A stretch of 64,000 bases of DNA, taken from the NCBI RefSeq assembly GCF_008831285.2, contig NC_045138.2, forward strand, positions 38,130,001 to 38,194,000. Reading direction: 5' to 3'. A program made the translations under genes and the position numbers. Shown in pieces: positions 26,662 through 55,687 of this stretch. This DNA comes from Nymphaea colorata (taxonomy: Eukaryota). Under the pieces are notes generated by a model, which did no database searches, was not told where the DNA came from, and worked only from the letters and a program-made list of their open reading frames with translations. The stretch's first letter is position 1. Each line of letters starts with the position of its first letter.

Positions 26662-26823
26662 GTCGTATTTTTTGTAACTCTCTCTAGTTACAAAAAATAC
26701 GACTAACAGATTATTTGTTTAATCAGACTCTGTACAAGATCATGAACTTGCAATTTTAAGTTAGTTCCTCAAGAGCAGGTCATCGCGACGAAGAAGGCCA
26801 AAGGGGAGGAAGCTGTAAAAGAA

Positions 26824-28320
26824 ATGACAAGTTCCCTGGACGTCGTCGCGACCAAGAAGGCCGGAAGGGAAGAAGTAGAAGAAATTACAATTCCTTTTGA
26901 TGTGGTGGCCGAGTTCATATTACCGAGAGTGGCCGCTAGGGACTTGTTGAGGTTCAGGTCGGTGTGCAAGTCTTGGCGGCAGCTCATCGATGACCCGAAT
27001 TTCATTCACAACTACCTCAGGCGGCACGACTTAACCCTCCATCAAGAACGCCCTCCTTCCTTTACGAGCATCAGAAATCAACACCATGTCCATCAAGTTA
27101 TCGCCCACAGTTCAGGTTACCGCAAAATGGGACGGACAGAACGCGAAGGCTTATATTGCATCGACATGAACTGTTACCGCAAAATGGGACGGACAGAACG
27201 CGAAGGCTTATATTGCATGGACATAAAATGTGAGGGCACCAATGGCCGCATCAAAGACAACGATAAGCCTATCAAGATATTGGGATTGGAAGATTGCCCC
27301 AAAGACGCAGGGTTCAACATGCTACCCCCGTGTAAGGGTTTGGTCTTGTTTTTGAATAACAGTGCTCCTCTGTACCTGTGCAACCCTGCCACAGGTGAGT
27401 CTACCAGCCTGCCTCAGTCCAGTACTGCAGCACTGAGATGGCATGGCTTTTGCTATGGCTTTGGTTTTGATGATCGCAGCAAGGAGTTCAAGGTACTTCA
27501 TGTATGGGATGTTCATGATGATGAAGATGAGGTTGACTACCATGATTTACGAAGCTTAGGCAAAGATTGTTGCCATGAGATACTAAGCTTAGGCAAAGAT
27601 TGTTCTTGGAGGCAGCTGGGCCCATTGCCGTTTCGCTGGTATAATTGCAATAGCCTTCATCCCGGCATCCCTTTCAACAGCAGCCTGCACTGGATCGTAT
27701 GCGCTTGTGAGAAGACATGGGGAGACAACTCTCTCATGGCGTTTGATCTTAGAAAGGAGGAATTCAAGCGGAAGGCGTTGCCGCCCAGGCTTGACAAGGC
27801 AGTTTACTTATCGTTGAGCCTAATAACCCTTGCTGAGGGTTGTCTGGGTCTCACGAGATATAAAGTTGGTGGGGAGGCAGGGAACATTGGATTGGATGTT
27901 TGGGTGCTGGCCGATTATGAGAGCGAGATATGGACTAAACGACACCGCATTTCCTTCGCAAGCATTGGTTACGGGCTTGGGGATGTAGACGAAGAAGAAG
28001 AATACGTGAGCGATAGTGATTCCGATAGTGAATGCTTTCCAGATCATTATCCAAGGATACTGATTATGGGAGAGCATGAAATCTTGCTCCGCTTCATCGG
28101 GGAAGCTCTGATGCTTCTCTATGATTTGGAGCAGAAAACGTCTCGAAAGTTTGTTGTTGATGGGTATGAGGAAATTTTTTTCTCAGAACTGCCTTCCACC
28201 TACGTCTATGAACAACACCTTGGGTCAGCCTATTTCGTTTCTGCGCTCCGTAGTTGGTCTAGAATGATCTCCCTGAGAGAAGGGCAAGACAGAATTAATG
28301 CAGAAGCTTCCCCCGTTTGA
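26824..28320 (+). CDS. F-box/FBA-domain protein, copy 1 (498 aa from the second ATG; ancestral ATG at 26742 is out of frame)
   Basis: F-box motif IPFDVVAEFILPRVAARDLLRFRSVCKSWRQLIDDPNF. FBA-type motifs CKGLV, LCNPATGE, YGFGFD...FKV, SWR, LHW, AFDL..EEF, LDVWVL.DY...W. Coding region intronless. Confidence 0.9.
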   Translation: MTSSLDVVATKKAGREEVEEITIPFDVVAEFILPRVAARDLLRFRSVCKSWRQLIDDPNFIHNYLRRHDLTLHQERPPSFTSIRNQHHVHQVIAHSSGYRKMGRTEREGLYCIDMNCYRKMGRTEREGLYCMDIKCEGTNGRIKDNDKPIKILGLEDCPKDAGFNMLPPCKGLVLFLNNSAPLYLCNPATGESTSLPQSSTAALRWHGFCYGFGFDDRSKEFKVLHVWDVHDDEDEVDYHDLRSLGKDCCHEILSLGKDCSWRQLGPLPFRWYNCNSLHPGIPFNSSLHWIVCACEKTWGDNSLMAFDLRKEEFKRKALPPRLDKAVYLSLSLITLAEGCLGLTRYKVGGEAGNIGLDVWVLADYESEIWTKRHRISFASIGYGLGDVDEEEEYVSDSDSDSECFPDHYPRILIMGEHEILLRFIGEALMLLYDLEQKTSRKFVVDGYEEIFFSELPSTYVYEQHLGSAYFVSALRSWSRMISLREGQDRINAEASPV

Positions 28321-29590: not shown

Positions 29591-30044
29591 GGGTTGATAT
29601 AAGTATTTGGTGTATTCCTAGATGCCTAATAACATCCCGTTGCTACTAAGTGAAATAATTCTAATTAAAATAATTCTAATTAATGTAGAAGACTGATGTC
29701 GCATGTTTGTCTAACCCATGGCCCATGAATAGAAAGCAGCTTAGGAAGAATGGTTAATTCATGCGAAAGTCTCCAAAAAGAAAAGTCAATGCATGCGAAA
29801 ACTTCAGTGTGGAAGGATGACCAAAATTGCAATGTAATTCAAAAATGATATTGTGTACATTTTCATTTAAAAAAAGTCAATTACAGATTTTTCCTTCTTA
29901 AATTTAGCAATGCCATAACCTTACGCTTCAAACTTATAAATCCAGTTTTGAATCATGTGGATAACATCCTGTTATTTCATTTTCTCGTAGTCTTATTAAT
30001 CCATGCAAGAATTAATTAGTTTATGGGCTGGTGGGTAAGTACGC

Positions 30045-30847
30045 ACTCACAGATAGGCTCTCGCACGACTGCAGAAGTGCGATTACAGAACAGGGCGGAT
30101 ACTCAGGCCCTATTAATGAAGGAGAATGAAGATTCAATTGGGCAATCTTTTGCCAAATCACTTTCATTATTCATTTTTTAAATCACTATATAATAAACAA
30201 ACGTCAAACCTTGGGGCATTATTTGACCATGGTTTAAAAAGGGTAAGAATATTGTTCAAAATATGAACAAGGCTCAACGTCTTTTTCTACGGCCAATCAC
30301 ATCAAACACGTTTATGAATGGACAAACTGGAAATGGCTTCTACGCAGACCTGGGCAACTGGCCGGGCTGGCCCATCCGGCCTGAAACTCGGCCCGATAGC
30401 CCGGGTTCGGTCTGGCCAGTTGGGTAATAAAAAATAAATTTTAATTATAAAATAAAATTTTAGTAATATAAAATATATTTTTACTAATAAAATACATATT
30501 ATTAAATTTTAAAAAATTTTAAAAATTATTTTTTAATTTATAAACGGGTCGGGCCGGGCCATACATCAGGCCTGGGCCCGGCCCGTACCTGGACCCGACC
30601 GGGCCAGGTACCGGGTATCCGATGGGTACCCGGCCCGTTGCCCAGGTCTACTTGTACAACATCCAAATGGCTTTTATAAAAATATCAACCAGTTGTTGAG
30701 AATTTATTGAGTTGATTTGAGATATATACATATAAATATATATTTCTAAATATCCAAATAATATGATTCATAGTCAATCCTTATCTAATTGGATAATTGA
30801 TTCCAAAATATCTCCAATGTTCTATCCTCATATTATTCGTCTCTCTA

Positions 30848-30878
<31 letters not shown>

Positions 30879-31306
30879 ATTTGAGCACATTAACTATTTA
30901 GTTTGGCCATGATATTAAAAAGAAAGAAAGTTATACGTACACTTCACATAGTAGACTAGACAATATAGTGTATCAACGCTGCGTGTTTGACTGTCTTTAT
31001 GCAAAAATTCATGGCAATAAAATAGGTTAGTGATTTGTAAGATATCCAGTCATCTTCCTCGACAATCTCAACTAAATAAATCCAAATGGATATTGATCCC
31101 TAAATTCTTCTGCAGTATCCCAAATGGTGGACAGTTTATCCCGATCCTACTCCTCTCTCTTCTCTTGCTCGTTATATAAGAGAGAACAGATCTCGGAGAG
31201 AGCGAAAAAGTTGTATAAAACCTACGTTAGTCTCTATTTCTCAACGTGTGGGGAAGTGGCCACCGGTTGAAGGCCTCAAGGTGAATGTGCACTGCCTTTT
31301 CTTATT
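30045..31306 (+). promoter_or_regulatory. Orphan copy of the F-box upstream region, TATA, 5'UTR exon and donor, with no F-box CDS behind it
   Basis: Homologous to about 24605-25110 plus 25945-26135 and, inverted, to 40620-41570. TATATAA at 31173-31179, donor AAG|GTGAAT at 31281. Homology stops at about 31306. Confidence 0.75.
30345..30650. mobile_element. 306-bp hAT-type MITE
   Basis: TIRs CAGACCTGGGCAAC / GTTGCCCAGGTCTA, GGCCC-rich subtermini, AT-rich core, imperfect 8-bp TSD CTTCTACG / CTTGTACA. Absent from the paralogous sites near 24885 and 41260. Confidence 0.88.
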
Positions 31307-31571
31307 ACCCATCATCCAAATTATTTGGATTTTTGTGTCGTGTCAAGAAGCTTTAATGAGCCGAGTGAAGAATAATTCGTTACACAACCCACACAACAGC
31401 CGGGAGTTGAAAAAGAAAATTCAAAAAAAATTCTTAAATTGGTGAGAGACAAAAAAAAAAAAACACAAAAACAACAAAAATGGAAAAACCTATCTAGGTG
31501 TACTGGTTACTACATCGGTGAAAAATGAAAAAAAAGAAAGATAAACTCCAAAACAATAAAAAAGCAAAAAC

Positions 31572-34500
31572 TTAGCTACGTGTAGCAGAAGTTGATGTTT
31601 CTACGTGTAGCAGAAGTTGATGTTTCATCTTCTGTTGTTGAACCTTTCTTGATAAGAAAGCAAGGCTCGCCACTTTAGTATCTATAAAACCACCACCATG
31701 TAATTTGATTTTACTTTAACGCTGTAGCATAAAGCTTTCAGGTGGTGTGTGAAATAGTAAAAATATATCTCGAGACCTTTTAGTCACCACAAGAACATTA
31801 CTTTTTTTGTCGTCCATCATCAATGCAATTTCAACTTTAAACATTTCTTGATAAGAAAACAAGACTTGCCACTCCAGTTTCAATAAAACCACCACCATGT
31901 AACTTGGTTTTCCTTTAACGCTACAACACAAAACTTCCAAGTAGTGCATGAAATAGTAAAAGTATCTCGAGACCTTTTTGTCACCACAAAAACCATATTT
32001 TTTTTGTCATTCATCCTCAATGCAATTTAAACTATATACCTTTCTTGATAAGAAGTCAAGATTTGCCACTTTAAGTTCTATAAAATCACCATCATGTAAC
32101 TTGATTTTTCTTTAACGCTGCAACATAAAACTTTCAAGTGGTGAGTGAAATAGTAAAAGTATCTTGATAACTTTTTGTTACCACAAAAACCTTATTTTTT
32201 TTTGTCGTTCATCCTTAATGCAGTTTCTACTCTGGACCTTTCTTGATAAGAAGGTAAGACTCGCCACTTTAGTTTATATAAAACCACCACCATGCAACTT
32301 GATTTTCTTTTAACGCTGCAACATAAAGCTTTCAGGTGGTATGTGAAATAGTAAAAGTATATTGATACATTTTTTGCCACCACAAGAACCTTACTTTTTT
32401 TTATCGTTCATCCTCAATATAATTTCAACTCAAGACTTTTCTTCATAAAAAGGTAAGACTTGCCACTTTGGTTTATATAAAACTATTACCGTGCAACTTG
32501 ATTTTCAACGCTGCAACATAAAGCTTCCATGTGGTGCATGAAATAGTAAAAGTATCTCGAGACTTTTTTGTCACCACAAGAACCTTACTTTTTTTGTCGT
32601 CCATCTTCAATGCAATTTTAACTCTGCACCTTTCTTGATAAAAAGGCAAGACTCGCCACTTTGGTTTCTATAAAACCAACACCATATAACTTTATTTTTC
32701 TTTAATGCTGCTGCGTAAAGCTTCCACGTGGTACGTGAAATAGTAAAACTATCTCGAGACCATTTTGTCATCACAAAAACTTTACTTTTTTGTCGTCCAT
32801 CTTTAATGCAATTTCAACTTTCGACCTTTTTTGATAAAAAGACAAAACTCGCCACTTTAGTTTCTACAAAACCACCATGTGTAACTTGATTTTCCTTTAA
32901 CGCTACAATATAAAACTTTCAGTTGGTGCATTAAATAATAAAAGTATTTCGAGATCTTTTTGTCACTACAAGGACCTTACTTTTTTTGTCGTCCATCTTC
33001 AATGCAATTTCAGTTCTAGACCTTTTTTGATAAGAAAGAAAGACTTGCCACTTTGGTTTCTATAAAACCACCACCATGTAACATGATTTTCTTTTAACGC
33101 TGCTTTCAGGTGGTGCGTGAAATGGTAAAAGTATCTCGATACCTTTTTGTCACCATAAGAACCTTACTTTTTTTGTCGTTCATTCTCAGTGGAATTTCTA
33201 CTCTTAACGTTTCTTAATAAAAAGACAAAACTTGCCACTTTGGTTTCTATAAAACTACCACCATGTAACTTGATTTTCCTTTAACGTTGCAACATAAAAC
33301 TTTCAGGTGGTGCGTTAAATAATAAAAGTATTTCGAGACCTTTTTGTCACTACAAGAACCTTACTTTTTTTGTCGTCCATCGTCAATGCAATTTCAACTC
33401 TAAAACTTTTTTGATAAGAAGGCAAGACTCGCCACTTTGGTTTCTATAAAATTACCACCATGTAACTTGATTTTTCTTTAACGTTGCAGTATAAAGCTTT
33501 CTGGTGCGTGAAATAGTAAAAGTATCTTGAGACTTTTTTGTCACCACAAAAACCTTATTTTTTTTCTCGGTCATTTTTAATACAATTTCAACTATAAGAA
33601 AGTAAGACTCACCACTTTGGTTTATATAAAATCGCCACCATGCAACTTGATTTTCCTTTAACGCTGCAACATAAAGCTTCTACGTGGTGCGTGAAATAGT
33701 AAAAATATCTCGAGATCTTTTTGTCACTAGATGAACCTGACTTTTTTTGTCGTCCATTTTTCAATGCAATTTCAACTTTAGACCTTTCGTGACAAGAAGA
33801 CAAGACTCGTCACTTTAGTTTTTATAAAATCACAACATGGAACTTGACTTTTCTTTAACGCTACAACATAAAGCTTCCAGGTGGTGCGTGAAATAGTAAA
33901 AGTATTTTCAAACCTTTTTGTCACCACAAAAACCTTATTTTTTTTGTTCGTCCATTTTCAATGCAATTTCAACTCTGGAACTTTCTTGATAAGAAGACAA
34001 GACTCGTCGTTTCTATAAAATCACCATATATAGCTTGATTTTTTCTTACAGTGCAACATAAAGCTTCTAGGTAGTGCGTTAAATAGCAAAAGTATTTCGA
34101 GACCTTTTTGTCACCACAAGGTCCATACATTTTTTGTCGTCCATCCTCAATGCAATTTCAACTCTAGACCTTTCTTGATAAGAAAACAAAACTGTCACTT
34201 TCGTTTTTATAAAACCACCATCATATAACATGATTTTCCTTTAACGATGAAGTATAAAGTTTACATGTGGTGCGTGAAATAGTAAAAGTATTTTGAGACC
34301 TTTTTGATATCAACATTACTTTTTTTGCTGTTTATCCTCAATGCAATTTCAAGTCTACACCTTTCTTGATAAGAAGACATGATTTGCCACTTTGGTTTCT
34401 ATAAAACCACCACATGTAACTTGATTTTCGCTTAACGTTGCAACATAAAGCTTCAAGGTAGTGCGTGAAATAGTAAAAGTATTTCGAGACTTTTTTGTCA

Positions 34501-34954
34501 CTACAAAAACCTTACTTTTTTTGTCGTCCATTCTCAATGCAATTTCAACTGTAGACCTTTCTTGATAAGAAAGTAAGACTCGCTACTTTGGTTTATATTA
34601 AACCACCGTCATGTAACTTAATTTTCTTTTAATGTTGCAACATGAAAATTACAAGTAATGTGTAAAATAGTAAAATATCTCAAGACCTTTTTATCACCAT
34701 AAGAACTTTACTTCTTTTGTCGTTCATCTCAATGCAATTTCAACTCCATTACTTTGAACTTGTTCTTGTTGTTGGGGAGTCAAATGCACAACCAATCTTT
34801 CGTTTGCTGCTTGCACAAAAGCAAAATGAGAAACGACATCTGATTTAGTCAGCGTCTTCGTAAATAAAAATTGTATGTTTTCTACATTCAAATATGGATA
34901 ATCATTCAGATTAAGCGGAATGAGATGAAGAAAATCAGTCTACTTATTTTTCAT
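31572..34954 (-). pseudogene. B3-domain (DUF313-type) gene whose 3' half is amplified as a tandem array
   Basis: Minus strand from ATG 34954 reads MKNK*TDFLHLIPLNLNDYPYLNVENIQFLFTKTLTKSDVVSHFAFVQAANERLVVHLTPQQQEQVQSNG. This runs in frame into the repeat consensus VEIALRMDDKKSKVLVVTKRSRDTFTISRTTWKLYVAALKENQVTWWWFYRNQSGESCLLIKK, and after the last unit GSTTEDETSTSATRS* (TAA 31572-31574 once a 25-bp duplication is removed). Premature TAG at 34940-34942. Confidence 0.8.
31641..34746. repeat. Tandem array of 16 units of ~197 bp
   Basis: Marker TTTCTTGATAAGAA or a variant recurs near 31646, 31845, 32042, 32240, 32439, 32632, 32829, 33025, 33211, 33408, 33594, 33786, 33983, 34171, 34362 and 34558. 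Units differ by many transitions and small indels. Confidence 0.97.
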
Positions 34955-34970
34955 TTCTCTTTTAGTGTTC

Positions 34971-35135
34971 CTGAAAGTCATAATAAACAAGCAAGAAGAT
35001 GAACAAAATGAAACGCGAAAATCACAGACAAATGACACACAAAGCAAGAAGAGGCAAAGAAAACGAAAGGCTCACGTAGAAAGACAAAACAACACAAAAA
35101 GACAAAAAAATTGAAAGCGAACTTATTATTTATAA
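34971..35135 (-). promoter_or_regulatory. Putative TATA box and 105-nt 5'UTR intron of the B3 pseudogene
   Basis: Minus strand: TATAAATA at about 35126-35133, donor GTGAG at 35075-35071, T-rich intron, acceptor TTTCAG ending 34971, ATG 16 nt later. Confidence 0.55.
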
Positions 35136-36988
35136 TGAAACCACCACCATATTCATGTGAAATGCATTTGCCCTTAATTGAAACGATTACAAAGATATTT
35201 ACTATTCACACAAAAAAATTTGTTTGATTTTGATAGAGAAAGTACTAACTACTGAGCACAAAAAACCTATTGGTTTGAACAGATAAGACCGGGAACACGA
35301 TGGTCGCCATCTGCCGTGGCACAAGCTAAGGTTTTATGGAAAATGCCAGCACCCATGTGAGTAGGACTCGACTCGTACAACTCACACCACTCGTGCCCTG
35401 ATGACAAATATTATGGCGTAGGCCCAAATTTCAACTTTCTTTTTCATAATACGATTGTTCTTTCTCGAACTTTCAGCTTAGCCCTTTTACTATTTACATT
35501 TTTATCAACGTAGAAAAAATTTCTGCATTGACCATGCTGAATGAGAACTGTTGGTTGTTTCACCACACAGCTTAGTAGTTAGTATGAGGCAATCTTGAGG
35601 AAAAAAACCTTCTGTATTTACAAAAGAAAAAAAAAAAAACTCTTTGCAAGCAGAAAAGAGGCTGTCCCCACCTTCAGCCAAATTGCTTACTGCTACAAAA
35701 AAAAAAGTTCTTTTGAGGGTGGGGGCTCAGTTTTCATTTTTTTGGGGTGAAAGGAAGTTGGGGCTCAGTTCTACCAAACTATAAGACACCTCCACAAAAC
35801 CCAGATCATTACCATGACTAATCCAAAGTTGTTGACTATATGTTTAGTGTTTTGTTAAAAACAAACAAAAATTAGTATGTAACAACAAAAGGAGAACGAT
35901 ATATTAGGCTGATGGCAGATTAGACTCATAGTAACTAACAGCGTAGTCTTGGACACTGAAAGATTGTTTGACATCAACAACGTTTTGCAAGTCTTTCACT
36001 TGCAGAAAAGCCGTACTTTTTTTTTTCCTGCAACCCTAAGGTCGAAAGCTACGATGACCTCCAATGTGAAGTAATATATTTCAATAAGGACAAACCAGCT
36101 TCCACTCCAGTGAGCCTCTGAAAATGAAACTGACCAAATTTCAAAAGGTAAAACACAAATAAAAAATGTTGAAATAGTAGACGGATTGTCCCCATATGTA
36201 ATAAAAAAAATGCTTTTTTCACTGGAAAATACACATAAGTAGTTGTTCTATAACTTTTTACTGAATGCATTTAACTAATGGATCATCTTGGTTTAACTTG
36301 CAATTCGAAAAGAGGGATCTAAGTTGCATATGAGAACCGATGGATCTAAAGGTGAAAGTTGAATTTTGAAATGGAGTATTTACGGGGGGGGGGGGGGGGG
36401 GGGGGGGGTAGGGTTTATTAAAGCGTCTTAAAAAAATAATGAAAAGTTTGGGCGGCAAAAATGAATTAAAGAATCCATATGAGGCATGAACTTAACTGTG
36501 AACTCTTTCTTAGGAGGAAGGGAGGGTTTCGGTTCTTGCCTGCATAGTCGTCCTGCTTACCCTACTTCTAACGTTAGAAGTTTTCTGTTTTGAGTGCAAA
36601 TGTTCTTATTACATTTTAAAATAAAAACAAGCTATGAACTATGTCATTAATTCCTTTTGACTGCCTTCAATCTGTGAACTATGTTATTAATTCATTTTGG
36701 CTGCCTTCAAGAAATGATGTGATGTTAAATTTTTTATCTTTTTAAGTGAATCAAATATAAAAGAAATTTGAACACCTGCACTTGAAGAAAGCAGTACTTT
36801 TTTAATGTTTTCTTGTGGGAGGGACCATATACCTAAGGTTTTAGTTTGTAGACCAATGACACACCTAGCTCATAAAGAAACAATAATAATACTTTAAAAA
36901 ATACTTATTAAACCAAAAGATTAGAATTTTCCACCAAGTCATTTCTGTCAAAAATTCAATATTTTCGCTTTAACAACCAGGTTAAAGT

Positions 36989-37054
<66 letters not shown>

Positions 37055-38425: not shown

Positions 38426-39920
38426 TTAAACGGGAGAAGCGTCTGCATTAATGCCGTTTTGCCCTGCTCCCAGGGAGATCATTCTGGACCAACTGCGGAG
38501 CGCAGAAACGAAATAGGCAGACCCAGGATGTTGTTCATATACGTAGGTGGAAGGCGGTTCTGACAAAAAAAGTTTCTCATTCCCATCAACAACAAACTTT
38601 GGAAACGTTTTCAGCTCCAAATCATAGAGAAGCATCGGAGCTTCCGCGGAGCAAGATTTCATGCTCTCCCATAATCAGCATCCTTGGATAATGATCTGGA
38701 AAGCATTCGCTATCGCAATCACTATGGCTTACATATTCTTCTTCGTATACATCCCCAAGCGCGTGACCAATGCTTGCGAAGGAAATGTGGTGTCTTTTAG
38801 TCCATATCTCGCCCTCATAATAGCCCAGCACCCAAACATCCAACCCAATGTTCCCTGCCTCCCCACCAACTTTATAGCTCGTCAGACCCAAACAGCCCTC
38901 TGCTAGGGTTATTAGGCTCAACGACAAGTCAACTGCCTTGTCAAGCCCTGGCGGCAACGCCTTCCGCCTGAATTCCTCCTTTCCAAGATCAAACGCCATG
39001 AGAGAGTTGTCTCGCCATGTCTTCCCACAAGCGCATACGATCCAGTGCAGGCTGCTGTAGAAAGGGGTGCCAGGATGTCGGCTAGTACAATTATACCAGC
39101 GAAACGGCAATTCGCCCAGCTGCCTCCAAGAACAATCTTTGCCTAAGCTTAGTATCTCATGGTAGTAAACCTCATCTAACTCACGGTAGTAAACCTCATC
39201 TTCAACATCATGTACTACATGAAGTACCTTGAACTTCTTGCTGTGATCATCAAAACCAAAGCCATAGCAAAAGCCAAGCAATCTCAGTGCTGCATTACTG
39301 GACTGAGGCAGTCTGGTAGACTCACCTGTCACAGGGTTGCACAGGTACAAGGGAGCCCTCCGATTCGTAAACAAGACCAAATCCTTACAGGGTGGTAACA
39401 TGTTGAACACTATGTCTTTGGGGCAATATTCCAATCCCAATATCTTGATAGGCTTGCCGTTGTCTTTCATGCGGCCATTGGTATCCTCACATTTTATGTC
39501 CATGCAATATAAGCCTTCGCATTCTGTCCGTCCCATTTTGCGGTAACCTGAACTGTAGGCGATAACTTGATGAACATGGTGTTGATTTCTGATGCTCGTA
39601 AAGAAAGGAGGACGTTCTTGATGGAGGGTTAAGTCGTGCTGCCGGAGGTAGCTGTCAATGAAATTCGGGTCATCGATGAGCTGCCGCCAAGACTTGCACA
39701 CCGACCTGAACCTCACCAAGTCCCTAGCAGCCACGCTCGGTAATATGAACTCGGCCACCACATCAAAAGGAATTGTAATTTCTTCTGCTTCTTCCCTTCC
39801 GGCCTTCTTGGTCGCAACGACGTCAGAGGAACTTGTCATTTCTTTTACAGCTTCCTCCCCTTTGGCCTTCTTGGTCGCGATGACCTGCTCTTGAGGAACT
39901 AACTTAAATTGCAAGTTCAT
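38426..39920 (-). pseudogene. F-box/FBA copy 2, frameshifted near the C-terminus
   Basis: ATG 39920 (MNLQFKLVPQEQ). An 8-nt deletion near 38645 relative to copy 3 (CTTCC[CCGATGAA]GCGGAG) gives a stop at 38622. The original C-terminus continues in another frame to 38426. Confidence 0.85.
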
Positions 39921-39976
39921 GATCCTGTACGGAGTCTGATTATGGTAAACAAACAATCTGTTAGTCGTATTTTTTG

Positions 39977-40039
<63 letters not shown>

Positions 40040-43018
40040 TGAGTGCCTGCATCAGTTCATTCTCATGTATACACTTATGCATACCTATACATTATGTTTG
40101 GGGATGAATGATTTCTAGAAAAGAATAGAAAGAATCCGCTTGTATCTTCTGTGTTGAACTACTGCATTGGGTACTCTTGGATGGGTTTATTCTGTCTCGA
40201 GAAGTAAATATGGTTCCTTCTTGAATGGCTAAGGGTTTGGACTGAGGTCTTTATTATTAAGATCTCACTATTCGAATATCCAAGACCACATCTCTTTATG
40301 CCGAGTTCAACGCACCTAGACCTAACAAAACTTATTTTCTTCTATTCCGAAGAAAAACTCTGACGAGATCATTGATCAACAATCATCCACCATATATAAA
40401 AGACAACCCCATCTTGCGTAGTATCAAATATAGATTGTCTGTGTGTGTATATGTATATATTATAATCAAAAGAAAGTGTAAACAGAGTAGGTGCCGTTTC
40501 TCACGCGGCGAATGAAGTCCATTACGTAAGGTTTCTTCATGAGTAACTTAGTGTTCTTTGGCGGTTCCAAAGCAATGTAGGGGAAAGAGAAAAGGAAAGC
40601 ACCAAGCAAGCAATTAGAAATAAGAAAAGGCAGTGCACATTCACCTTGTGGCCTTCAGCCTGTTGCTGCTTCCTCACACGTTGAGAAAAAGAGACGATCG
40701 AAGGCTTTATACAAATTTCTCAATCTCTTTGAGATCCGTCAATCTCTTTGAGATCCGTTTATCTTATATAACGAGGGAGAGAAGAGAGAGAAGTTAGGAT
40801 CGGGATAAACCATCCACCATTTGGGATACGGCAGAGATCAAATATCTGTTTGGATTTGTTCGGTTGAGAATTTTGTGGCAGATGATTGGATATCTTACAA
40901 ATCACTAACCTATTTTATTGCCACTAATTCCTGTGCAAAGATTCAAACGTCCCAACGCTGATCCATATGTTGTCTATTCTACAATACGAAGCATACGTAT
41001 AACTTTCTTTCTTTTCAATATCATGGCCAAACTAAAAAGTTAATGTGGGGATAATATGGGGATAGAATATTGAGTGGAAAGAGAGGAATAATATGGGGAT
41101 AGAATATTGGAGATATTTTGGGATCAATTATCAAATTAGATAAGGATTGACAAATCAGATTATTTTTGGATATATATATATCTCAATCTCAAATCAACTC
41201 AGTAAATTAAATTCTCAACAACCGGCTGATATTTTTATAACAGCCGTTTGAATGTCGTACACGTCTATTAATGTGGTTCCAGGTTGTCTATTTACTAACG
41301 TGTTTGATATGGTTGGCCGTAGAAAAATACGCTGAGGCTTGTTCATATTTTGAACAATATTGATACCCTTTTTAAACCATGATCAGATAATGCCCCAAGG
41401 TTTGACGTTTGCATATTACATAGTGATAAAACATTGAATAATATAAGTGATGATTTGGCAAAAGACTGCGCAATTGAATCTTTCATTATCCTACATTAAT
41501 ACGGCCTAAGTATCCATCCTCTTCAGTAATCGCACTTCTACAGTCATGAAAGAGCCTATCTGTGAGTGATTTAACTAGTCAAGTATTAAAGATGCAGCCG
41601 CTTTTGTTACCGTATGCCAAAGAGTATGTCTTTTTTGTTACCATCTACAGAGAAAAGCATATGCTTACATTCCTCTTGAAGACAGAGAGCAAGAGAGAGG
41701 GAGAAATGGAAAGCAAGTGTCCTTCAACCCCTTGAACCTGTTTCTAAGACCTGGAAAATCATTTTTAACAAAAAATGTCTTTTAACATAACTTTACCCCA
41801 AAGAAAAGCGCGCGTCCTTCAACCCATCTCTTTTGGGCCTCCACAGAATGTTGCAGCAGCAGACAGAAAAGATCCATATGGAATGGAACATCATACTACA
41901 AACAGGGTGATAGTGTTGCACCTTGCACTCAGTATAATGTCTACTGCATATTAAGGAGAAAATGTCTACTGCATATTAAGGAGAAGTGAAAGCCTATCTG
42001 TGATTGTAAGCCGAGTTAAGTGGGCATATATAAAATATGCAGATGCTTTTGTTATCTGCTATGACACGGGTTTGTTAGGCTTTATGGAAAATGCCAGCAA
42101 CCATGTGAGTAGGGCTGGAGCCTAGAGACCCGCATACCTCACACCACTCGCGCCCTGATGGCAAATTTTAAGGCAGGACCAAATTTTAACTTTCTTTTTC
42201 ATACTACGACTCTTCTTTCCCCAACATTCAGTTTAACCCTTTTACATTTTTATCAGCCTAGGAAAAAACGTAGAAATTTTTGATTGTTGCACCACATAGC
42301 TTAGTAGTTAGTATGTGACAATCTTGAGGAAAAAAACTTCTGTATTTACAAAATAAAAAAAAAAACTCTTTGCCGACGAAAAAGCGGTTTTCCCCACCTT
42401 AAGCGAAATTGCTTACTGCTGCAAAAAAAAAAAGGTTCTTTTGAGTGTGGGGGCTCAGTTTTCATTTTTAAAAAGTATTTAATTTTCAGGGGTGAAAGCA
42501 TGTGGGGGCTCAGTTCTACCAAACTCATTCTTTAAAAGTTTAATTTAGTAGTTGAATTTAAATGGACCTTGATCCAGTTATATAAGACACCTCCACAAAA
42601 CTGACTATATGTTTAGTGTTTTGCTAAAAAAAGAAAAACAAAAATTAGTATGTAACAACAAAAGGAGAGCGATATATTAGGCTGATGGCACATTAGACTC
42701 ATAGTAACTAACAGCCTAGACTTGGACACTAAAAGATTGTTTGGCATCAACAACTTTTTTGTAGGTATTTTATGAATCTGTTTCAATTTAAAGATTAAAA
42801 CAAATTCATGAAATATTACAACTATTATTCCAAAAATCTTCTTTATCTTTGTGGCAGTTTCATATCTTTATTACAAACAACTCCTTAAAGGGCAAGCACG
42901 ATGAGAAACATTTCTGTCATTTGCAGAAAAGCTATACTTTTTTTTCCTTCGACCCTAAGGTCGAAAGCTACGATGAGCTTTAATGTGAAGTAATATATCT
43001 CAATGAGGACAAAGCAGT

Positions 43019-45058: not shown

Positions 45059-46539
45059 TCAAACGGGAGAAGCGTCTGCATTAATGCCGTCTTGCCCCGC
45101 TCCCAGGGAGATCATTCTAGACCAACTTCGGAGCGCAGAAACGAAATAGGCAGACCCAGGATGTTGTTCATATACGTAGGTGGAAGGCCGTTCTGACAAA
45201 AAAAGTTTCTCATTCCCATCAACAACAAACTTCCGAAACGTTTTCAGCTCCAAATCATAGAGAAGCATCGGAGCTTCCCCGATGAAGCGGAGCAAGATTT
45301 CATGCTCTCCCATAATCAGCATCCTTGGATAATGATCTGGAAAGCATTCGCTATCGCAATCACTATGGCTCACATATTCTTCTTCGTATACATCCCCAAG
45401 CGCGTGACCAATGCTTGCGAAGGAAATGTGGTGTCCTTTAGTCCATGTCTCGCTCTCATAATCGCCCAGCACCCAAACATCCAACCCAATATTCGCTGCC
45501 TCCCCACCAACTTTATAGCTCGTCAGACCCAGACAACCCTCAGCTAGGGTTATTAGGCTCAGCGACAAGTCAACTGCCTTGTCAAGCCCTGGCGGCAACG
45601 CCTTCCGCCTGAATTCCTCCTTTCTAAGATCAAACGCCATGAGAGAATTGTCTCGCCATGTCTTATCACAAGCGCATACGATCCAGTGCAGGCTGCTGTT
45701 GAAAGGGGTGCCGGGATACCGGCAATTATACCAGCGAAACGGCAATCGGCCTAGCTGCCTCCAAGAACAATCTTTGCCTAAGCTTAGTATCTGATGGTAG
45801 TAAACCTCATCTTCATCATCGTGAACATCCCATACATGAAGTACCTTGAACTCGTTGCTGCGATCATCAAAACCAAAGCCATAGCAAAAATCATACCATC
45901 TCGGTGCTGCAGTACTGGGCTGCGGCAGTTTGGTAGACTCACCTGTGGCAGGGTTGCACAGGTACAGGGGAGCACTCTTATTCAAAAACAAGACCAAACC
46001 CTTACACGGGGGTAGCATGTTGAACCCTTCGTCTTTGCTGAAATCTTCCAATCCCAATATCTTGATAGGCTTATCGTTGTCTTTCATGCGGCCATTAGTA
46101 TCCTCACATTTTATCTCCATGCAATATAAGCCTTCGCGTTTTGTCCGTCCCATTTTGCGGTAACCTGAACTGTAGGCGATAACTTGATGGACATGGTGTT
46201 GATTTCTGATGCTCGTAAAGAAAGGAGGACGTTCTTGATGGAGGGTTAAGTCGTGCCGCCGGAGGTAGCTGTCAATGAAATTCGGGTCATCGATGAGCTG
46301 CCACCAAGACTTGCACACCGACCTGAACCTCACCAAGTCCCAGCGGCCACGCTCGGTAATATGAACTCGGCCACCACATCAAAAGGAATTGTAATTTCTT
46401 CTGCTTCTTCTTCCCTTCTGGCCTTCTTGGTTGCGACGACGTCAAAGGGAGTTGTCATTTCTTTTACAGCTTTCTTCCCTTTGGCCTTCTTGGTCGCGAC
46501 GCCCTGCTCCTGAGGAAGTAACTTAAATTGCAAGTTCAT
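45059..46539 (-). pseudogene. F-box/FBA copy 3, 1-nt frameshift inside the F-box motif
   Basis: ATG 46539 (MNLQFKLLPQEQ). GCTGGGAC versus GCTAGGGAC in copies 1 and 2 at about 46341 gives a stop at 46330. The remaining 425 codons (46336-45059) are open. Confidence 0.82.
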
Positions 46540-46568
46540 GATCCTGTACAGAGTGGTATTTTTTGTAA

Positions 46569-46634
<66 letters not shown>

Positions 46635-48315
46635 TGTTTGGGGATAAATGATTTCTAGGAAAGGATAGAAAGAATCTACATGTATCTGCTTTGTTGAACT
46701 ACTGCATTGGGTACTCTTGGATGGGTTTATTCTGTCTCGAGAAGTAAATATGGTTCCTTCTTGAATGGCTAAGGGTTTGGACTGAGGCCTTTATTATTAA
46801 GATCTCACTATTCGAATATCCAAGACCACATCTCTTTATGCCGAGTTCAACGCACCGACCCAACAAAACTTATTTTCTTCTATTCCGAAGAAAAACTCTG
46901 ACGAGATCATTGATCAACAATCATCCACCATATATAAAAGACAACCCCATCTTGCATAGTATCAAATATAGATTGTCTGTGTGTGTATGTATATATATTA
47001 TAATCAAAAGAAAGTGTAAACAGAGTAGGTGCCGTTTCTCACGCGGGGAATGAAGTCCATTACGTAAGGTTTCTTCATGAGTAACATAGTGTTCTTTCGC
47101 GGTTCCAAAGCAATGTAGGGGAAAGAGAAAAGGAAAGCACCAAGCAAGCAGCTAAAAATCACCATAAGAAAAGGCAGTGCACATTCACCTTGTGGCCTTC
47201 AGTCTGTTGCTGCTTCCTCATACGTTGAGAAAAAGAGACGATCGAAGGCTTTATACAAATTTCTCAATCTCTCTGAGATCCGTTTATCTTATATAACGAG
47301 GGAGAGAAGAGAGAGGAGTTAGGATCGGGAGAGAGAGAGAGAGGAGTTGGGATACGGCAGAGATCAAATATCTGTTTGGATTTGTTCGGTTGAGATTTTT
47401 GTGGCAGATGATTGGATATCTTACAAATCTGCCACAAATTCCTGCGCAAAGAGCCAAACCTCGCAACGCTGATACACATAAGAATTCGAATAATAAAAGT
47501 GATTTGGCAAAAGATTGCGCAATTGAATCTTCATTCTCCATTATTAATGGGGCCTGATTATCCGCCCTCTTCTGCAATCGCACTTCTGCGGTCGTGCAAG
47601 AGCCCATTGTGTGAGTTTTCGACTGATTTAACGAGGCTAGTACAAAAGATGCAGCCGCTTTTGTTACAGTATGCCAAAGAGTAAGTCTTTTGTGTTGCCA
47701 TATACATAGAAAGCATATGTTTACATTTCTCTTGAGGACAGAGTGCAAGAGAGAGGAAGAAAGGGAAAGCAGGCGTCCTTCAACCCGTTTTTTCCCTTAA
47801 ACCTGCTTCCCGTTTTTTCCCTTAAACCTGCTTCAAGTCCTGGAAAATCCTTTTTAACAAAAAAATATCTTTAACATAACTTTACCCCCAAAGAAAAGCG
47901 GGCGTCCTTCAACCCCGGGGAGAACCAGCTAGCTCTGGGTTCTAGTAGATCACCCAGGTTCCGGTCCATGTGACAATTGCCCTATGAAGACTCTCTCTTT
48001 TGGGCTCCACAGAATGTTGCAGCAGTAGGCAGAAAAGATTCATATGGAATGGAACACTGCCCATGAGCCTACCCACCCTCTTTTTCGACCGCGAAGACAG
48101 TTGAAGTAATAACTAGTTCTTCTGAATCTACCAGAGAGAGAGAGAGATTTATTATAGTAAATATCAGTTAAAAGATGTACAAATTTATGCCAAAACCTAA
48201 AAGAGGTTCCGGCATCTTCATCGACTTATTCCACTGATTCCCTTCTTTGTATTCTAAATCACTGTACAGTCCACATCAGGCAAGCGGCCTCTTCAAAAGC
48301 GCCGGACGGCATCAG

Positions 48316-49439: not shown

Positions 49440-49925
49440 GACCAAACTTACATGGTGGTTATCAAAATCAGGAAAACTTTATATCAGCTGCGGTGGATTG
49501 AGGCAGGGTGGTGGACTCGCCTGTGGCAGGGTTGCACAGATACAAGGGAAGTATCGGATTCACAAGACCAAACCCTTTCATGGTGGTAAGATGGCGAACT
49601 CTCGGCCATTCGGGCAATATTCCAAGCTCAGGATCTTGGCAGGCTTATCGTGGCCTTCGATGCGGCCATTAATATCATCCAATACAAGTCTCTGGGTTCA
49701 TATCATATGTCTGTTCCGTGTTGTCATAATCTAGAATGTAGGTGATAACTTAGGTGATCGATGAGCTGAGGCCATGACTTGCATACTGACCTGGTCCTTG
49801 GTGGACACTCACGGCAAAATGAACTTAGCCACCACATCCAAGGAATCGTTTCTTTGTTTACTTTCTCCCTTGTTCCCATCTTCGTTGCCAGCAGATCTTG
49901 AGGAACTAAATCAAACTACTGATAC
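49440..49925 (-). pseudogene. F-box copy 4, degenerate 5' remnant most similar to copy 5
   Basis: Fragments match 52540-53130 (GCCACCACATCCAAGG, GACTTGCA.ACTGACCTG, TTCGGGCAATATTCCAA, GGGTTGCACAGA) with deletions and frameshifts. Upstream 49930-50220 matches 53210-53470. Confidence 0.85.
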
Positions 49926-50739
49926 AAAATAAAGATGACAGAAAAAACGAAAGCGAGGAACAACAGCCAACCTTAACTAAACAACGCATCGAAGTCATTT
50001 AACCAATGCGCCAAAAGAAAGATGAAAAGAACCCATGAGAAGAAGAAGTTGCAGAAGGCTACAGTGCTACTTATCATGAAGGATCGACGTGCTGTAATGA
50101 GTTATTGAAGTTTATTCATCTTATGAGAAGAACTATGAAATCGGAAGTTCTACATCTTGTTTGTTCAAAATATGTGCAACTAGCAGAAAATTTCCTTCGA
50201 GTACGTCGCACCTTCCAACATGATTAACTAATTGCTCTTCCCATGTCATTTTCTTTCTTATTTCTTGAATGATAGCTGTGGAATGTTAATGAAAGGAAAT
50301 TAAATAGCTTCAATTGACAAAATTTAGGCTCGGGTAACCCATTGAACAACTTTGAGGAAAGATAAGGAGGGAGCTTTCCGTGTATGGAAGTAAGGAACAA
50401 AGGAATTTTGCCTACTTAATCCAATTAACGCAAAAAATTCTCCATTCTAAATATACGGAGATTTACCAGCGTTTCACATTTTAGGGTACAAGGAAAATGC
50501 TGCTTTAATTTAGCCAACGAATCTGACCGAAATCTGCGCACCTGTGCTGTTCATTCAGCTGATCAAAATGCGTACCATTTGTTCCCTGAGTACTTATCTC
50601 CCTTCATCTTTCCGGCGATTGATTTAAAGTATCCTAAGAAGGTGGAGCGATTATACGCTCGAGGGTGCACCAAGTTCCATCACCTCTGTCCCTCACGAAA
50701 ACCTATCTGTATGGGGTCATTTGATTATAATCCCTAACT

Positions 50740-51856: not shown

Positions 51857-53131
51857 CTACCTGCTGCACAGTGCAGAAATTAATAAGGCAGACTCAGGAT
51901 CTTGCTCATATATGTACCACAGATGCCGTCCACTAAGTTTCCGATCACCAACCACAACCCTCTGGAACGTTTTCTGTTTGGAATCGTAGAGAATCATATG
52001 AGACACCAGGACGAACTGGAGCAAGATTTTATCCTCCCAAATAATCAACGGCCAAGGACGGATATGCTTCATCCCAGATAATCCACTAGGGAAGCTTTCT
52101 AAGGAAATCTGGTGCCTTTTAGTCCAAATATTGCTTTCGTAATCTTCAAGTACCCAAACATTCAATCCAACCTCTGCCTCATGGTTCATGAGAACCAGAT
52201 TACCCTCGACTTCAGCTAGCTTCAAGTGGAAAACCTCTTCAAGTCCCGCAGGCAACGCCTTCCGCCTAAATTCCTCCTTTGTGAGATCAAAAGCATAAAG
52301 TACTGAGTAGTTCTTCTTGCACAGATAACCGATGCGTATGATCCAATGCAGGCTGCCGTGGCAAGGAGTGCTCCGAGAACTGCACACGAAATGGTGACCA
52401 AATGGCAAGCGACCGACCTGCCTCCAGGATATATCTTTGCCTAGACTCAGTACCTCACATTCGCACACAGGATACGAACTACCTGAAGCTTTGATGCCGT
52501 CCCAAATATAAACTGCTTTGAACTGCTTTCTGTGCGCATCAAAACCAAAGCCATAGCTGTAGGCAAACTTATACCGTGCTGCTGTAGTTTGAGGCAGAAT
52601 GGCGAACTCACCTGTGACAGGGTTGCACAGACACAGGGGATCTGACTTACTCGCAAACAAAACCAAACCCTTACATGGTGGTAACATGTTGAACCCTCGA
52701 CCTTTCGGGCAATATTCCAAACTCAATATCTTGGCAGGCTCATTGTCGTCATTGATGCGGCCATTAACAATATCTTCACATTTTATGTCCATGCCATATA
52801 TGGATGGAGGCATATTCATCCATCCGAAGGAGATAACTTGGAGGCCATGGCGACGAGAGGCATCTCTGATGCTCGTAAAGAAAGGAGGACGTCGGTCATG
52901 GAGGGTTAAGTCGTGCAGGCTGAGGTGCTTGTGAATGAAATATGAGTCATCGATGAGCTGACGCCATGACTTGCACACTGACCTGAACCTCAACAGGTCC
53001 TTGGTGGATACGCTCGGCAAAATGCACTCGGCCACCACATCCAAGGGAATCGTTTCTTCATTTGCTTCCTCCCTTGTTCCCATCTTCGTTGCGAGGAGAT
53101 GTTGAGGAACTAATTTAAATTGCTGATCCAT
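51857..53131 (-). CDS. F-box/FBA-domain protein, copy 5 (divergent, intact, 424 aa)
   Basis: ATG 53131 (MDQQFKLVPQ, homologous to the paralog starts). F-box IPLDVVAECILPSVSTKDLLRFRSVCKSW and the same FBA motifs. No disabling lesion seen. Confidence 0.9.
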   Translation of the reverse strand: MDQQFKLVPQHLLATKMGTREEANEETIPLDVVAECILPSVSTKDLLRFRSVCKSWRQLIDDSYFIHKHLSLHDLTLHDRRPPFFTSIRDASRRHGLQVISFGWMNMPPSIYGMDIKCEDIVNGRINDDNEPAKILSLEYCPKGRGFNMLPPCKGLVLFASKSDPLCLCNPVTGEFAILPQTTAARYKFAYSYGFGFDAHRKQFKAVYIWDGIKASGSSYPVCECEVLSLGKDISWRQVGRLPFGHHFVCSSRSTPCHGSLHWIIRIGYLCKKNYSVLYAFDLTKEEFRRKALPAGLEEVFHLKLAEVEGNLVLMNHEAEVGLNVWVLEDYESNIWTKRHQISLESFPSGLSGMKHIRPWPLIIWEDKILLQFVLVSHMILYDSKQKTFQRVVVGDRKLSGRHLWYIYEQDPESALLISALCSR

Positions 53132-55150
53132 GATGCAGAATAACAACCAACAATGAATTTTCTCATTCAAGTAGCAACCAGAATAAACAGTTCACGAAGT
53201 AACTCCTATATATAAATAAAGACGACGAAAAAACAAACGCGAGAAACAACAACCAACCTAACAAGCAGCACATTAAGTGATTGTAACCAATGCTGAAAAG
53301 AACCCATGAGAAGAGCAAGTAGGAGAAAGGAGATAGTGTTGCTTATCACGAAGAGTCGACGTGCTGTAACGAATTAATCAAGTTTAAGTATCATATGAAT
53401 TTCTATATCTTTTTGCCTCAAAATGTATGCAACTAGTAGAAAATCTCCCTCGAGTACGTACCACCTAACCACACGGCTTCTACAGTGGAACACTCTCGCA
53501 AAAACAAAGGAAATAAAAAAAAACTCAGCACCACATTAAAGAAGAACAAATGTCGAAGGCAGAACCTGGTTATGGAGAAAGCTGATAATTATCAATATCA
53601 TGTTATGGGCTGTTCACGTTTTGGGTCAATAACAGTGTCATAGCATAATCGAACACGAAGAGAAAATTGAAAACCGCTTAAGGGGGGAGATCAATACCTT
53701 TACAAAAGGAATCCCAAGAGCCGACACAGAGGCGAGACGAGCGAGAAAAGAAGAAGTTGGGCGAACGTGGTTTTGGGCACCCAAATACCCAAAATCAAGT
53801 TTATGCCCTAAATGGCATCCGCTAAATAAAATTCTGAAAAGAAATTAAAACGGGCCCAATTAAGTTTTCCAGAACTTTTTTAGAAGCTCTATAAACCAAA
53901 CTATCAAGCCGAAAAAATTTGCAAAGTTGTTCATAACGCCCGTTTGCTTTCCAAAATTTTTGTTGGGACGACTCTAAAATTTTTAAAAATGAATGGGGCA
54001 CATTATGCTTTCCAAAATTTCTGCTGGATAACGGGTAAAATTTTTAGTTTTCATAATTTCAGGGGACACCATGGCCCCTGCTAGTCCGTCCGTGAGAGGA
54101 GGGGGTGAAGGTCGCCACCACGGCGAAGGTGCTGACAAGTTTGTGCATAGAATTAGATTCAGAAAGGAGAAAGAGAAAGAAGAAACATAGGTGGTAGATC
54201 TGGTAGGAGAAAATTAATAATGTTCAACGAAGAAAAGTTATGAAAGAATGAACTGGGAAAAATGAAGGCAAGCAATCTGATATGATAGTTCAACCTGTAG
54301 TCCAAAAATTTCGGAGCCTTTTTGGGTTCACATCCAACGATTAAGGTTCCAATGAAGAGGGTGCTCGGACACTGAACTTGGCACTTTTTTTTTTATTACA
54401 GTTAACTAGAAATACTGCCTTCAATCAAAATACGCAAGTATTCAATAAATGGAAATCCACAATGTTTTATTTTTGTCTCCTAAATTGTTCAGACGCATGA
54501 TTGGAGTTATCTTGAATGGAGAAGCAAGGTACCTTTGCTAATGATATGTTATTTTCATGGCATCTAGGTGGATGCTTTCAAAAATTAAACATCATGTGTT
54601 CAGTGGCTTCCATAAGACACTTATTTTTATGTCATTTTCCATGGAGAATGTAGTCTTATGCTAAGAGCTGGAACGGCATCTTTGGGGAAGAACTGGGAGG
54701 ATTTTATTGAAATGGGTATCTAGGATTTTTTTAAAAAATTTCGTTGACAATATTTTCGCTTCTTTTGGTACCTGCTGGTGTTTGGTTCGGTAGAGATTGC
54801 AGATGATGAGAGAGGCCCTCTATTTTCTGCAAAAATATGATTGTAGTCCCTATCATGCATGGTAATAGCATTGTTGACAGTATATGTCATTCCGACATAG
54901 AACATATAACATCGCCATTGTCTTTGCTCAATACAAAGCTTTCAACAAAATAACTTTCCTTTTAATGGAAGAACTTTCACAATTGATGACCAACATCGGT
55001 CGAAGAATCAGTTCTTCCCATTGCCCACAAGAACAGAACAACAAACAGAAAATGATCGGGAACAAGGAAAATCGCAACCAACTTCAAGAAATAGCTGGAA
55101 TCTGATGAAACCGATGATCATTTCAATCAAGAACAGACATGGTATTGCAA

Positions 55151-55687
55151 CTATGCACCAATCATAGGCCCTGCGCTCTTCGGTAGTTCAGGTGATTGTA
55201 CTCCTCTCAAAGTGATAATGATGAAGGGAACAGGGACCTGGTTGGGAAGCCACAGATCCAGAATGCTTGTACCATTGGCTTTCACGCTGTTCTCATCCCT
55301 AACCTCCGACCAACCTCTTGATATCTTGAAGCTCCCTTTACCTGCGTAAGTCCTGTGAATGGTGATCAACGCCTCCCCTTTAGGGTGAAATGCCAGTAAT
55401 TGCAGGTTGATCGAACCGGAGTCGTCAACTTGGGTTATCCTTTTCCTCTGTTCCTCCGTCAACAGCGGCTTGATCATGTCAATGGCATCCTTGGGTATGG
55501 TTGGTGATCTGAACCCGTTGAATGTTACATGAAGTTTGAACCAGTGCACTACATGTCCTAAGTCTCTGTGGATTTGGAAGTGGGGGAACTCTGGGACTTG
55601 ATCTCCATGGATTCTACCTTGAGGATGTGGTACCCTGCAAAAAACGGGGGAAAATTCCGCAGCTTGAAATAGGTTGTATCTAGAATA

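Follow-up and report, generated by a model that had tools for sequence, protein, structure and literature searches.

A tandem array probably born from a coding exon within its own, likely B3-type, pseudogene in the water lily Nymphaea colorata

How tandem arrays arise in unique DNA is known mostly from models, since the sequence that seeded them has usually disappeared. In the window analysed here, the whole stretch of 64,000 nt, a head-to-tail array lies between the 5' half and the 3' tail of what appears to be a single open reading frame. The question is whether a coding exon gave rise to a tandem array inside its own gene, and what became of that gene. The reading preferred here, with a probability of about 0.78, is that the locus represents a single-exon gene, now dead, which belonged to a small family, likely one of B3/DUF313 DNA-binding pseudobarrel proteins, and that the last 64 codons of this gene, probably multiplied to 16 copies in one short burst, then decayed without selection.

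Structure of the locus

The following features were recognized (positions within the window).
31307..35328, no strand assigned, whole B3-like block of 4 kb (self-BLAST)
31572..31641, minus strand, unique 3' tail, continuing the frame in which unit 16 ends (sequence)
31642..34746, minus strand, array of 197-nt units, 16.0 copies, head-to-tail (TRF, sequence, contig tiling)
34745..34954, minus strand, 5' half of the parent ORF, 70 codons (sequence; covered by paralogous contigs)
34971..35075, minus strand, candidate 5'UTR intron of 105 nt, GT..AG, T-rich (about 54% T) (sequence)
35128..35134, minus strand, putative TATA-box-like element TATAAAT, 180 nt upstream of the ATG (sequence, with function assumed from it)

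The array is located at one locus and has a total length of 3.1 kb; a period of 197 nt and 16.0 copies were reported by TRF, with 80% matches. The units are 184–199 nt long, are 85–92% identical to the unit consensus and consist of about 194 nt of former coding sequence and a 3-nt junction filler. On the minus strand, unit 1 starts at 34744 and unit 16 at 31835. The 5' half of the parent ORF begins with ATG at 34954, and its codon 5 is TAG (34940–34942); the 3' tail contains a 25-nt tandem duplication at 31576–31626. The preliminary description had claimed an array of 16 units of about 197 nt, preceded by a TATA box, a candidate intron, an ATG and the TAG at codon 5, and all of these, the regulatory ones as predicted elements, are present. 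The unit consensus includes a 13-nt word that is also present, unchanged, at 35138–35150, just upstream of the TATA box. Rfam matches are absent from positions 30000–37000 of the window.

Seven contigs of sequencing run X1 overlap over the entire array with 0 differences at a depth of 13–22, and five contigs of run X2, which originates from a separate study, also show 0 differences within the array. The contig depth of the array in X1 is that of single-copy sequence. Run X1, the best one, is possibly the source of the window itself, a circumstance in favour of an assembly artefact, but the units differ pairwise by 11–23%, and the agreement of the contigs from both runs already refutes such an artefact; a multi-domain protein masked by sequencing errors is opposed by a period which is not a multiple of 3. 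The probability of this whole class of explanations is close to nil. In a third run, X3, contigs up to two units long, with 86% and 95% identity to the array and a depth of 22–24, were found for positions 32899–33559 of the window, together with identical contigs of lower depth; the diverged two-unit contigs may belong to another genotype or to a second array.

The B3-like block is flanked on both sides by blocks of a locally duplicated gene cluster, and no second copy of it was found within the window by self-BLAST. Genes of the cluster, which from a reading of the sequence we take to be of the F-box type, are located at 26746–28320 on the plus strand and at 38625–40091, 45062–46698, 49470–49926 and 51860–53191 on the minus strand. 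The duplicates are both direct and inverted and 67–92% alike; one of them is an annotated 498-aa protein, and the others seem shifted or fragmentary. Two neighbouring genes fall into 90% clusters with proteins of Nymphaea thermarum. At 30650–31306, the upstream region of the F-box genes is present as a copy, but in place of such a gene the B3-like block follows, tail first, which suggests a rearrangement junction. The adjacent element of about 300 nt at 30346–30649, which is bounded by 13-nt terminal inverted repeats and is GC-rich at its ends and AT-rich in between, appears to be a MITE-like insertion; it has very high contig depth, and many contigs have loose ends at 30650.

A second small single-exon ORF without an annotated match is located at 55154–55687 on the minus strand. 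Its one relative, P0001 (87%), has a weak Pfam match to B3 (E 0.087), and the ORF is possibly another diverged B3-like gene. Its structural model is poor (pLDDT 39) and has no Foldseek match, and no significant similarity to the array pieces was detected (BLASTP E 2.7; hhalign probability 0.7 and 0.2).

Coding origin and affinity of the parent gene

The minus-strand unit consensus contains one open frame of 65 codons with 0 stops, which continues the 70-codon 5' half, as had been described for the unique sequence to the right of the array; the other five frames contain 3–5 stops each. Any of the six frames was open in 1837 of 20,000 base shuffles of the unit (about 9%), and the open consensus frame taken alone is modest evidence of coding origin. 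Support beyond this chance level is added by the fact that the open frame is the same one that is entered from the ATG. Two consensus codons were tied at 7:7, namely codon 6, Lys vs Arg, and the column vote at codon 32, where TGA is present in 6 of the 16 units, TGG in 4, TGT in 2, TAG in 2, TTG in 1 and a gap in 1. Trp was chosen at codon 32 by parsimony and is likely ancestral, since every variant codon is a single change away from TGG, and G-to-A changes predominate.

With a single unit, the ORF as the DNA stands is read to a stop at codon 156. The rebuilt ORF is thus 155 codons long and not about 148, as initially proposed, because the 25-nt tail duplication shifts the frame; 148 codons are obtained only if this duplication is also collapsed. 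Read-through at a junction encounters a stop six codons into the following unit, as had been stated. Indels were found in 14 of the 16 units and stops in the ancestral frame also in 14, and every unit has at least one of these two defects. With 86% identity, 2 frameshifts and 3 stops, unit 1, on which completion of the protein would have depended, is one of the most decayed units. The TAG at codon 5 and the broken unit 1 make the locus a pseudogene, with no intact ORF for a DNA-binding protein. The period of 197 nt, the half domain and the stop past each junction bear out the earlier statement that this is not a multi-B3 protein. The statement that a coding segment, with units in decay, became a tandem repeat between its own 5' half and tail is also supported.

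Run X1 includes paralogous sequences from other positions of the genome. With the likeness set at 80%, 25 contigs align to the locus, nine of them at 99% or more, one at 90–95% and 15 under 90%, and in the divergent contigs positions of the 5' half and of the unit are joined in register. Of the 15 joints shown, seven, each of depth 15, form the chain unit end, unit start and 5' half two times; they can be read as tandem one-unit genes, the shared depth and end points pointing to a single contig. Four contig stretches, translated by hand, add up to 43 stop-free codons of the ancestral frame, with 4–6 identical residues per 10–13, this count leaving out a loose end at 33243, which is not placeable in register, and a 31-letter stretch with a stop. 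Two of the four open stretches span the border between the 5' half and the unit. The 31-letter stretch, also translated by hand, contains the stop and a net loss of 1 nt.

In frame in these contigs from other loci, the 5' half is joined to a single unit, which identifies the parent as a gene with one unit, belonging to a small family. The unit occurs in the other X1 contigs once per gene and behind the same 5' half; a free repeat without these flanks, which would have contradicted the preliminary description, was not observed. Among the aligned X1 contigs no paralogous one covers the 3' tail, so the ancestry of the tail is drawn solely from its reading frame. Protein sequence searches with the 5' half or the unit alignment as the query returned no homologous protein, and a metagenome scan gave 451 pattern matches, 0 of them confirmed.

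A gene fragment carried by a transposon of the Helitron or Pack-MULE type, with the array as an internal repeat of the element, would agree with a 4-kb block that breaks the F-box duplication pattern and with several related copies in the genome; tandem repeats within elements are documented in the accessible text of PMC7004042. However, the 25 longest of the 113 pairs from the block ends include no convincing terminal inverted repeat, the other copies have one unit each and are in part arranged in tandem like a gene cluster, and promoter, candidate intron, ATG and stop, as predicted from the sequence, are all present. A transposon origin is regarded as quite improbable.

The affinity of the parent gene is indicated mainly by its 5' half. 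The families of the B3 superfamily compared were PF02362, At2g31720-like PF03754 (DUF313) and EcoRII-N PF09217, and a DNA-binding pseudobarrel is the fold common to B3 and EcoRII-N (PMC3973309). In the Atlas, the 5' half matched EcoRII-N at 0.95 (first match, 181 shared features), B3 at 0.92 and PF03754 at 0.86. All ten best family matches belong to one clan, so the 5' half resembles the pseudobarrel clan, at a recognition of 2208, below the tool's mark of 2300. The 5' half is likely to correspond to the N-terminal half of a pseudobarrel of the B3/EcoRII-N type, a fold that has seven strands in the whole domain.

For the unit, no usable match was found in the Atlas. In the Pfam scan, PF02362 or PF03754 was matched by none of nine array or 5'-half pieces, which are halves or interrupted readings; the only family listed, Pox_A8 (E about 0.01, 15–16 bits vs a cut-off of 25), was taken as chance. 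PDB sequence and profile searches found no B3, the sequence rows being at chance level only. The AlphaFold2 model of unit 11 has a helix at residues 19–31 and strands at 34–41 and 47–53, with pLDDT of 72–78 in that part, and no Foldseek match. B3 domains end in helix–strand–strand, to which the model of unit 11 presumably corresponds, and the pattern W..(F/Y)V...LK in the unit is assumed to be the B3 closing motif.

The blanks for the unit in Pfam, PDB, Atlas and Foldseek, together with Atlas recognition of the 5' half below the mark, would also be expected of a coding ORF unrelated to B3. This possibility is unlikely in view of the first Atlas match of the 5' half, with its 181 shared features, and of three named families among the matches, all of one fold (PMC3973309 for B3 and EcoRII-N). 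The B3/DUF313 identity proposed earlier is partly supported, by the 5' half, and finds no counterpart in searches with the unit; B3/PF03754 ancestry of the parent gene is considered highly probable.

Burst, decay and loss of the gene

All 15 internal joints have one junction sequence, while native sequence is present at both outer ends, which indicates that the junction was made once and then copied. The mean pairwise difference between units is 17.2% and is flat at lags 1–8 (16.3–17.6%), and variants shared between units show no excess over shuffles (p = 0.23 and 0.19). The unit phylogeny, suggested in the preliminary description along with a C-to-T spectrum, is a star, in which one of 13 inner branches is supported, uniting units 8 and 10 (95/92); this pair indicates at least one later local exchange. 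Apart from that exchange, the unit data fit a single burst after which the copies decayed independently. The decay is neutral, with synonymous, nonsynonymous and stop changes numbering 72/210/36 vs a neutral expectation of 80/209/31.5 (p = 0.49). The inter-unit transversion distance, 4.8%, lies inside the range of five neighbouring duplicated flanks (2.2–10.3%), and the burst is therefore similar in age to the local F-box duplications.

Transitions in the array affect 203 of 1209 C/G positions vs 45 of 1890 A/T positions. The ratio, 7.05, compares with 1.74 in the control, F-box duplicates polarised by a third copy and consisting partly of coding DNA. The ts/tv ratio is 2.49 in the array vs 0.61–1.23 in all five duplicated flanks; since the neighbouring values are near 1, the transition excess is specific to the array. 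Transition rates by context are 0.151 for CG, 0.190 for CHG and 0.169 for CHH, with no excess in CG (24/159) vs CHH (167/987; p = 0.65), and by 5' neighbour they are highest after T (0.216) and C (0.181) and lowest after A (0.114). Methylation-type decay usually ranks CG above CHH. The transition excess appears to fit dense all-context methylation, in a pattern which is not the usual CG-led one and is tilted towards a 5' pyrimidine. The earlier view that the array decays like methylated DNA thus agrees with the sevenfold C/G excess but not with the rank of CG.

The history of the array is reconstructed as follows. The initial event would be a 194-nt duplication with a 3-nt filler, of the end-joining type, and it would be followed by fast copying at the home locus via a rolling circle or quick unequal exchanges, two routes which the data do not separate. 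Lying past the last strand of the domain, the first junction would have left the domain complete and swapped a 14-residue acidic tail for six other residues, while the remaining 15 units would have become a 3-kb repetitive 3' region of the gene. The gene would have been lost at about the time the array formed, likely silenced with dense all-context cytosine methylation, which would account for the transition excess. As unit 1 is among the most decayed units, the time since the death of the gene is about equal to the age of the array. Repeat-caused silencing or transcript decay likely killed the gene, with prior redundancy as the rival cause.

Alternatively, the array was born from coding sequence of a parent that was already dead, so that array and loss are unrelated, and the C-to-T excess reflects local mutation bias or dipyrimidine damage rather than methylation directed by the repeat. 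One paralog is also broken; most of the family may therefore consist of dead copies, and the death of the parent may predate the burst. The TAG at codon 5 is undatable. A CG rate not above that of CHH would suit a local bias, and the highest rates after 5' T or C would suit a bias or dipyrimidine damage. On the other hand, the ancestor of the units had an open 65-codon frame and was hence intact or only recently dead, and the restriction of the excess to the array, against ts/tv near 1 in neighbouring duplicated DNA, does not favour local bias. Death of the parent before the burst is possible, though somewhat unlikely, and loss of the gene together with array formation remains the preferred reading.

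Comparison with known systems

Satellites consist of non-coding head-to-tail monomers in long or numerous arrays with concerted evolution or higher-order repeats. The monomers of this locus have the first property. Its extent is limited to 16 copies with single-copy contig depth in X1, beside the diverged two-unit contigs of X3, and the star tree and the absence of a lag effect indicate neither concerted evolution nor higher-order structure. No spread or homogenisation of the unit was seen in run X1. The term satellite-like used initially is therefore apt for the shape, but an array of 3.1 kb at one locus without homogenisation is not yet a satellite. A bolder version of events, in which a satellite monomer is at birth from a coding exon of a gene of the transcription factor type, a single rolling-circle-type burst at the home locus made a repeat that silenced its own complete gene via all-context methylation, and the unit was re-amplified in a related water-lily genotype (the X3 contigs), is doubtful.

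A close parallel is the model of Ruiz-Ruano, in which satellite birth is local de novo tandem duplication of any sequence at a unique locus, with rDNA spacers and transposons among the named seeds (accessible text of PMC5615363). The water-lily array is alike in being short and in a single place before spread, formed by slippage or circle reinsertion, and it differs in the protein-coding seed and in the survival of the parent flanks and one-unit paralogs. The CapA satellite of New World monkeys arose from an intron of NOS1AP (Valeri et al. 2018, cited in PMC8210747); in both cases, a genic sequence that is single-copy in relatives is in tandem in one lineage. However, CapA is intronic and a major satellite, whereas the water-lily unit is exonic, breaks the frame and has 16 copies.

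In plants, satellites derived from 3'UTR repeats of the retrotransposon Ogre are known (PMC7004042). Such satellites, and those from rDNA spacers, share with this array tandem monomers of traceable origin, but their seeds were already repetitive and non-coding (PMC7004042, PMC5615363). Clusters of REM genes consist of whole genes in tandem under relaxed constraint (PMC13717154). The 5' half described here resembles the same clan, and the small family, tandem clusters and relaxed constraint are common to both, but REM clusters repeat whole domains or genes in frame, in contrast to the out-of-frame, non-coding repetition of a half domain in the present array. In the literature consulted, mainly open papers and abstracts, neither a plant array from a coding exon nor this locus was found, although repeat annotations in supplements could include the array; the accessible text of PMC6947457 contains nothing on exon origins of tandem repeats.

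The reach of the case is limited, as it is a single 3-kb locus in a pseudogene. Since the 5' half, the tail, the frame and one-unit paralogs of the parent survive, breakpoints, ancestor, burst shape and mutation spectrum can be read from it. The 16 copies of one ancestor form a polarised mutation record within a young plant repeat, in which the C-to-T excess is equally high in the CHH and CG contexts. Relative to the known systems, it is well supported that the locus represents a known process, local birth of a tandem array, with a coding exon as the seed inside its own pseudogene.
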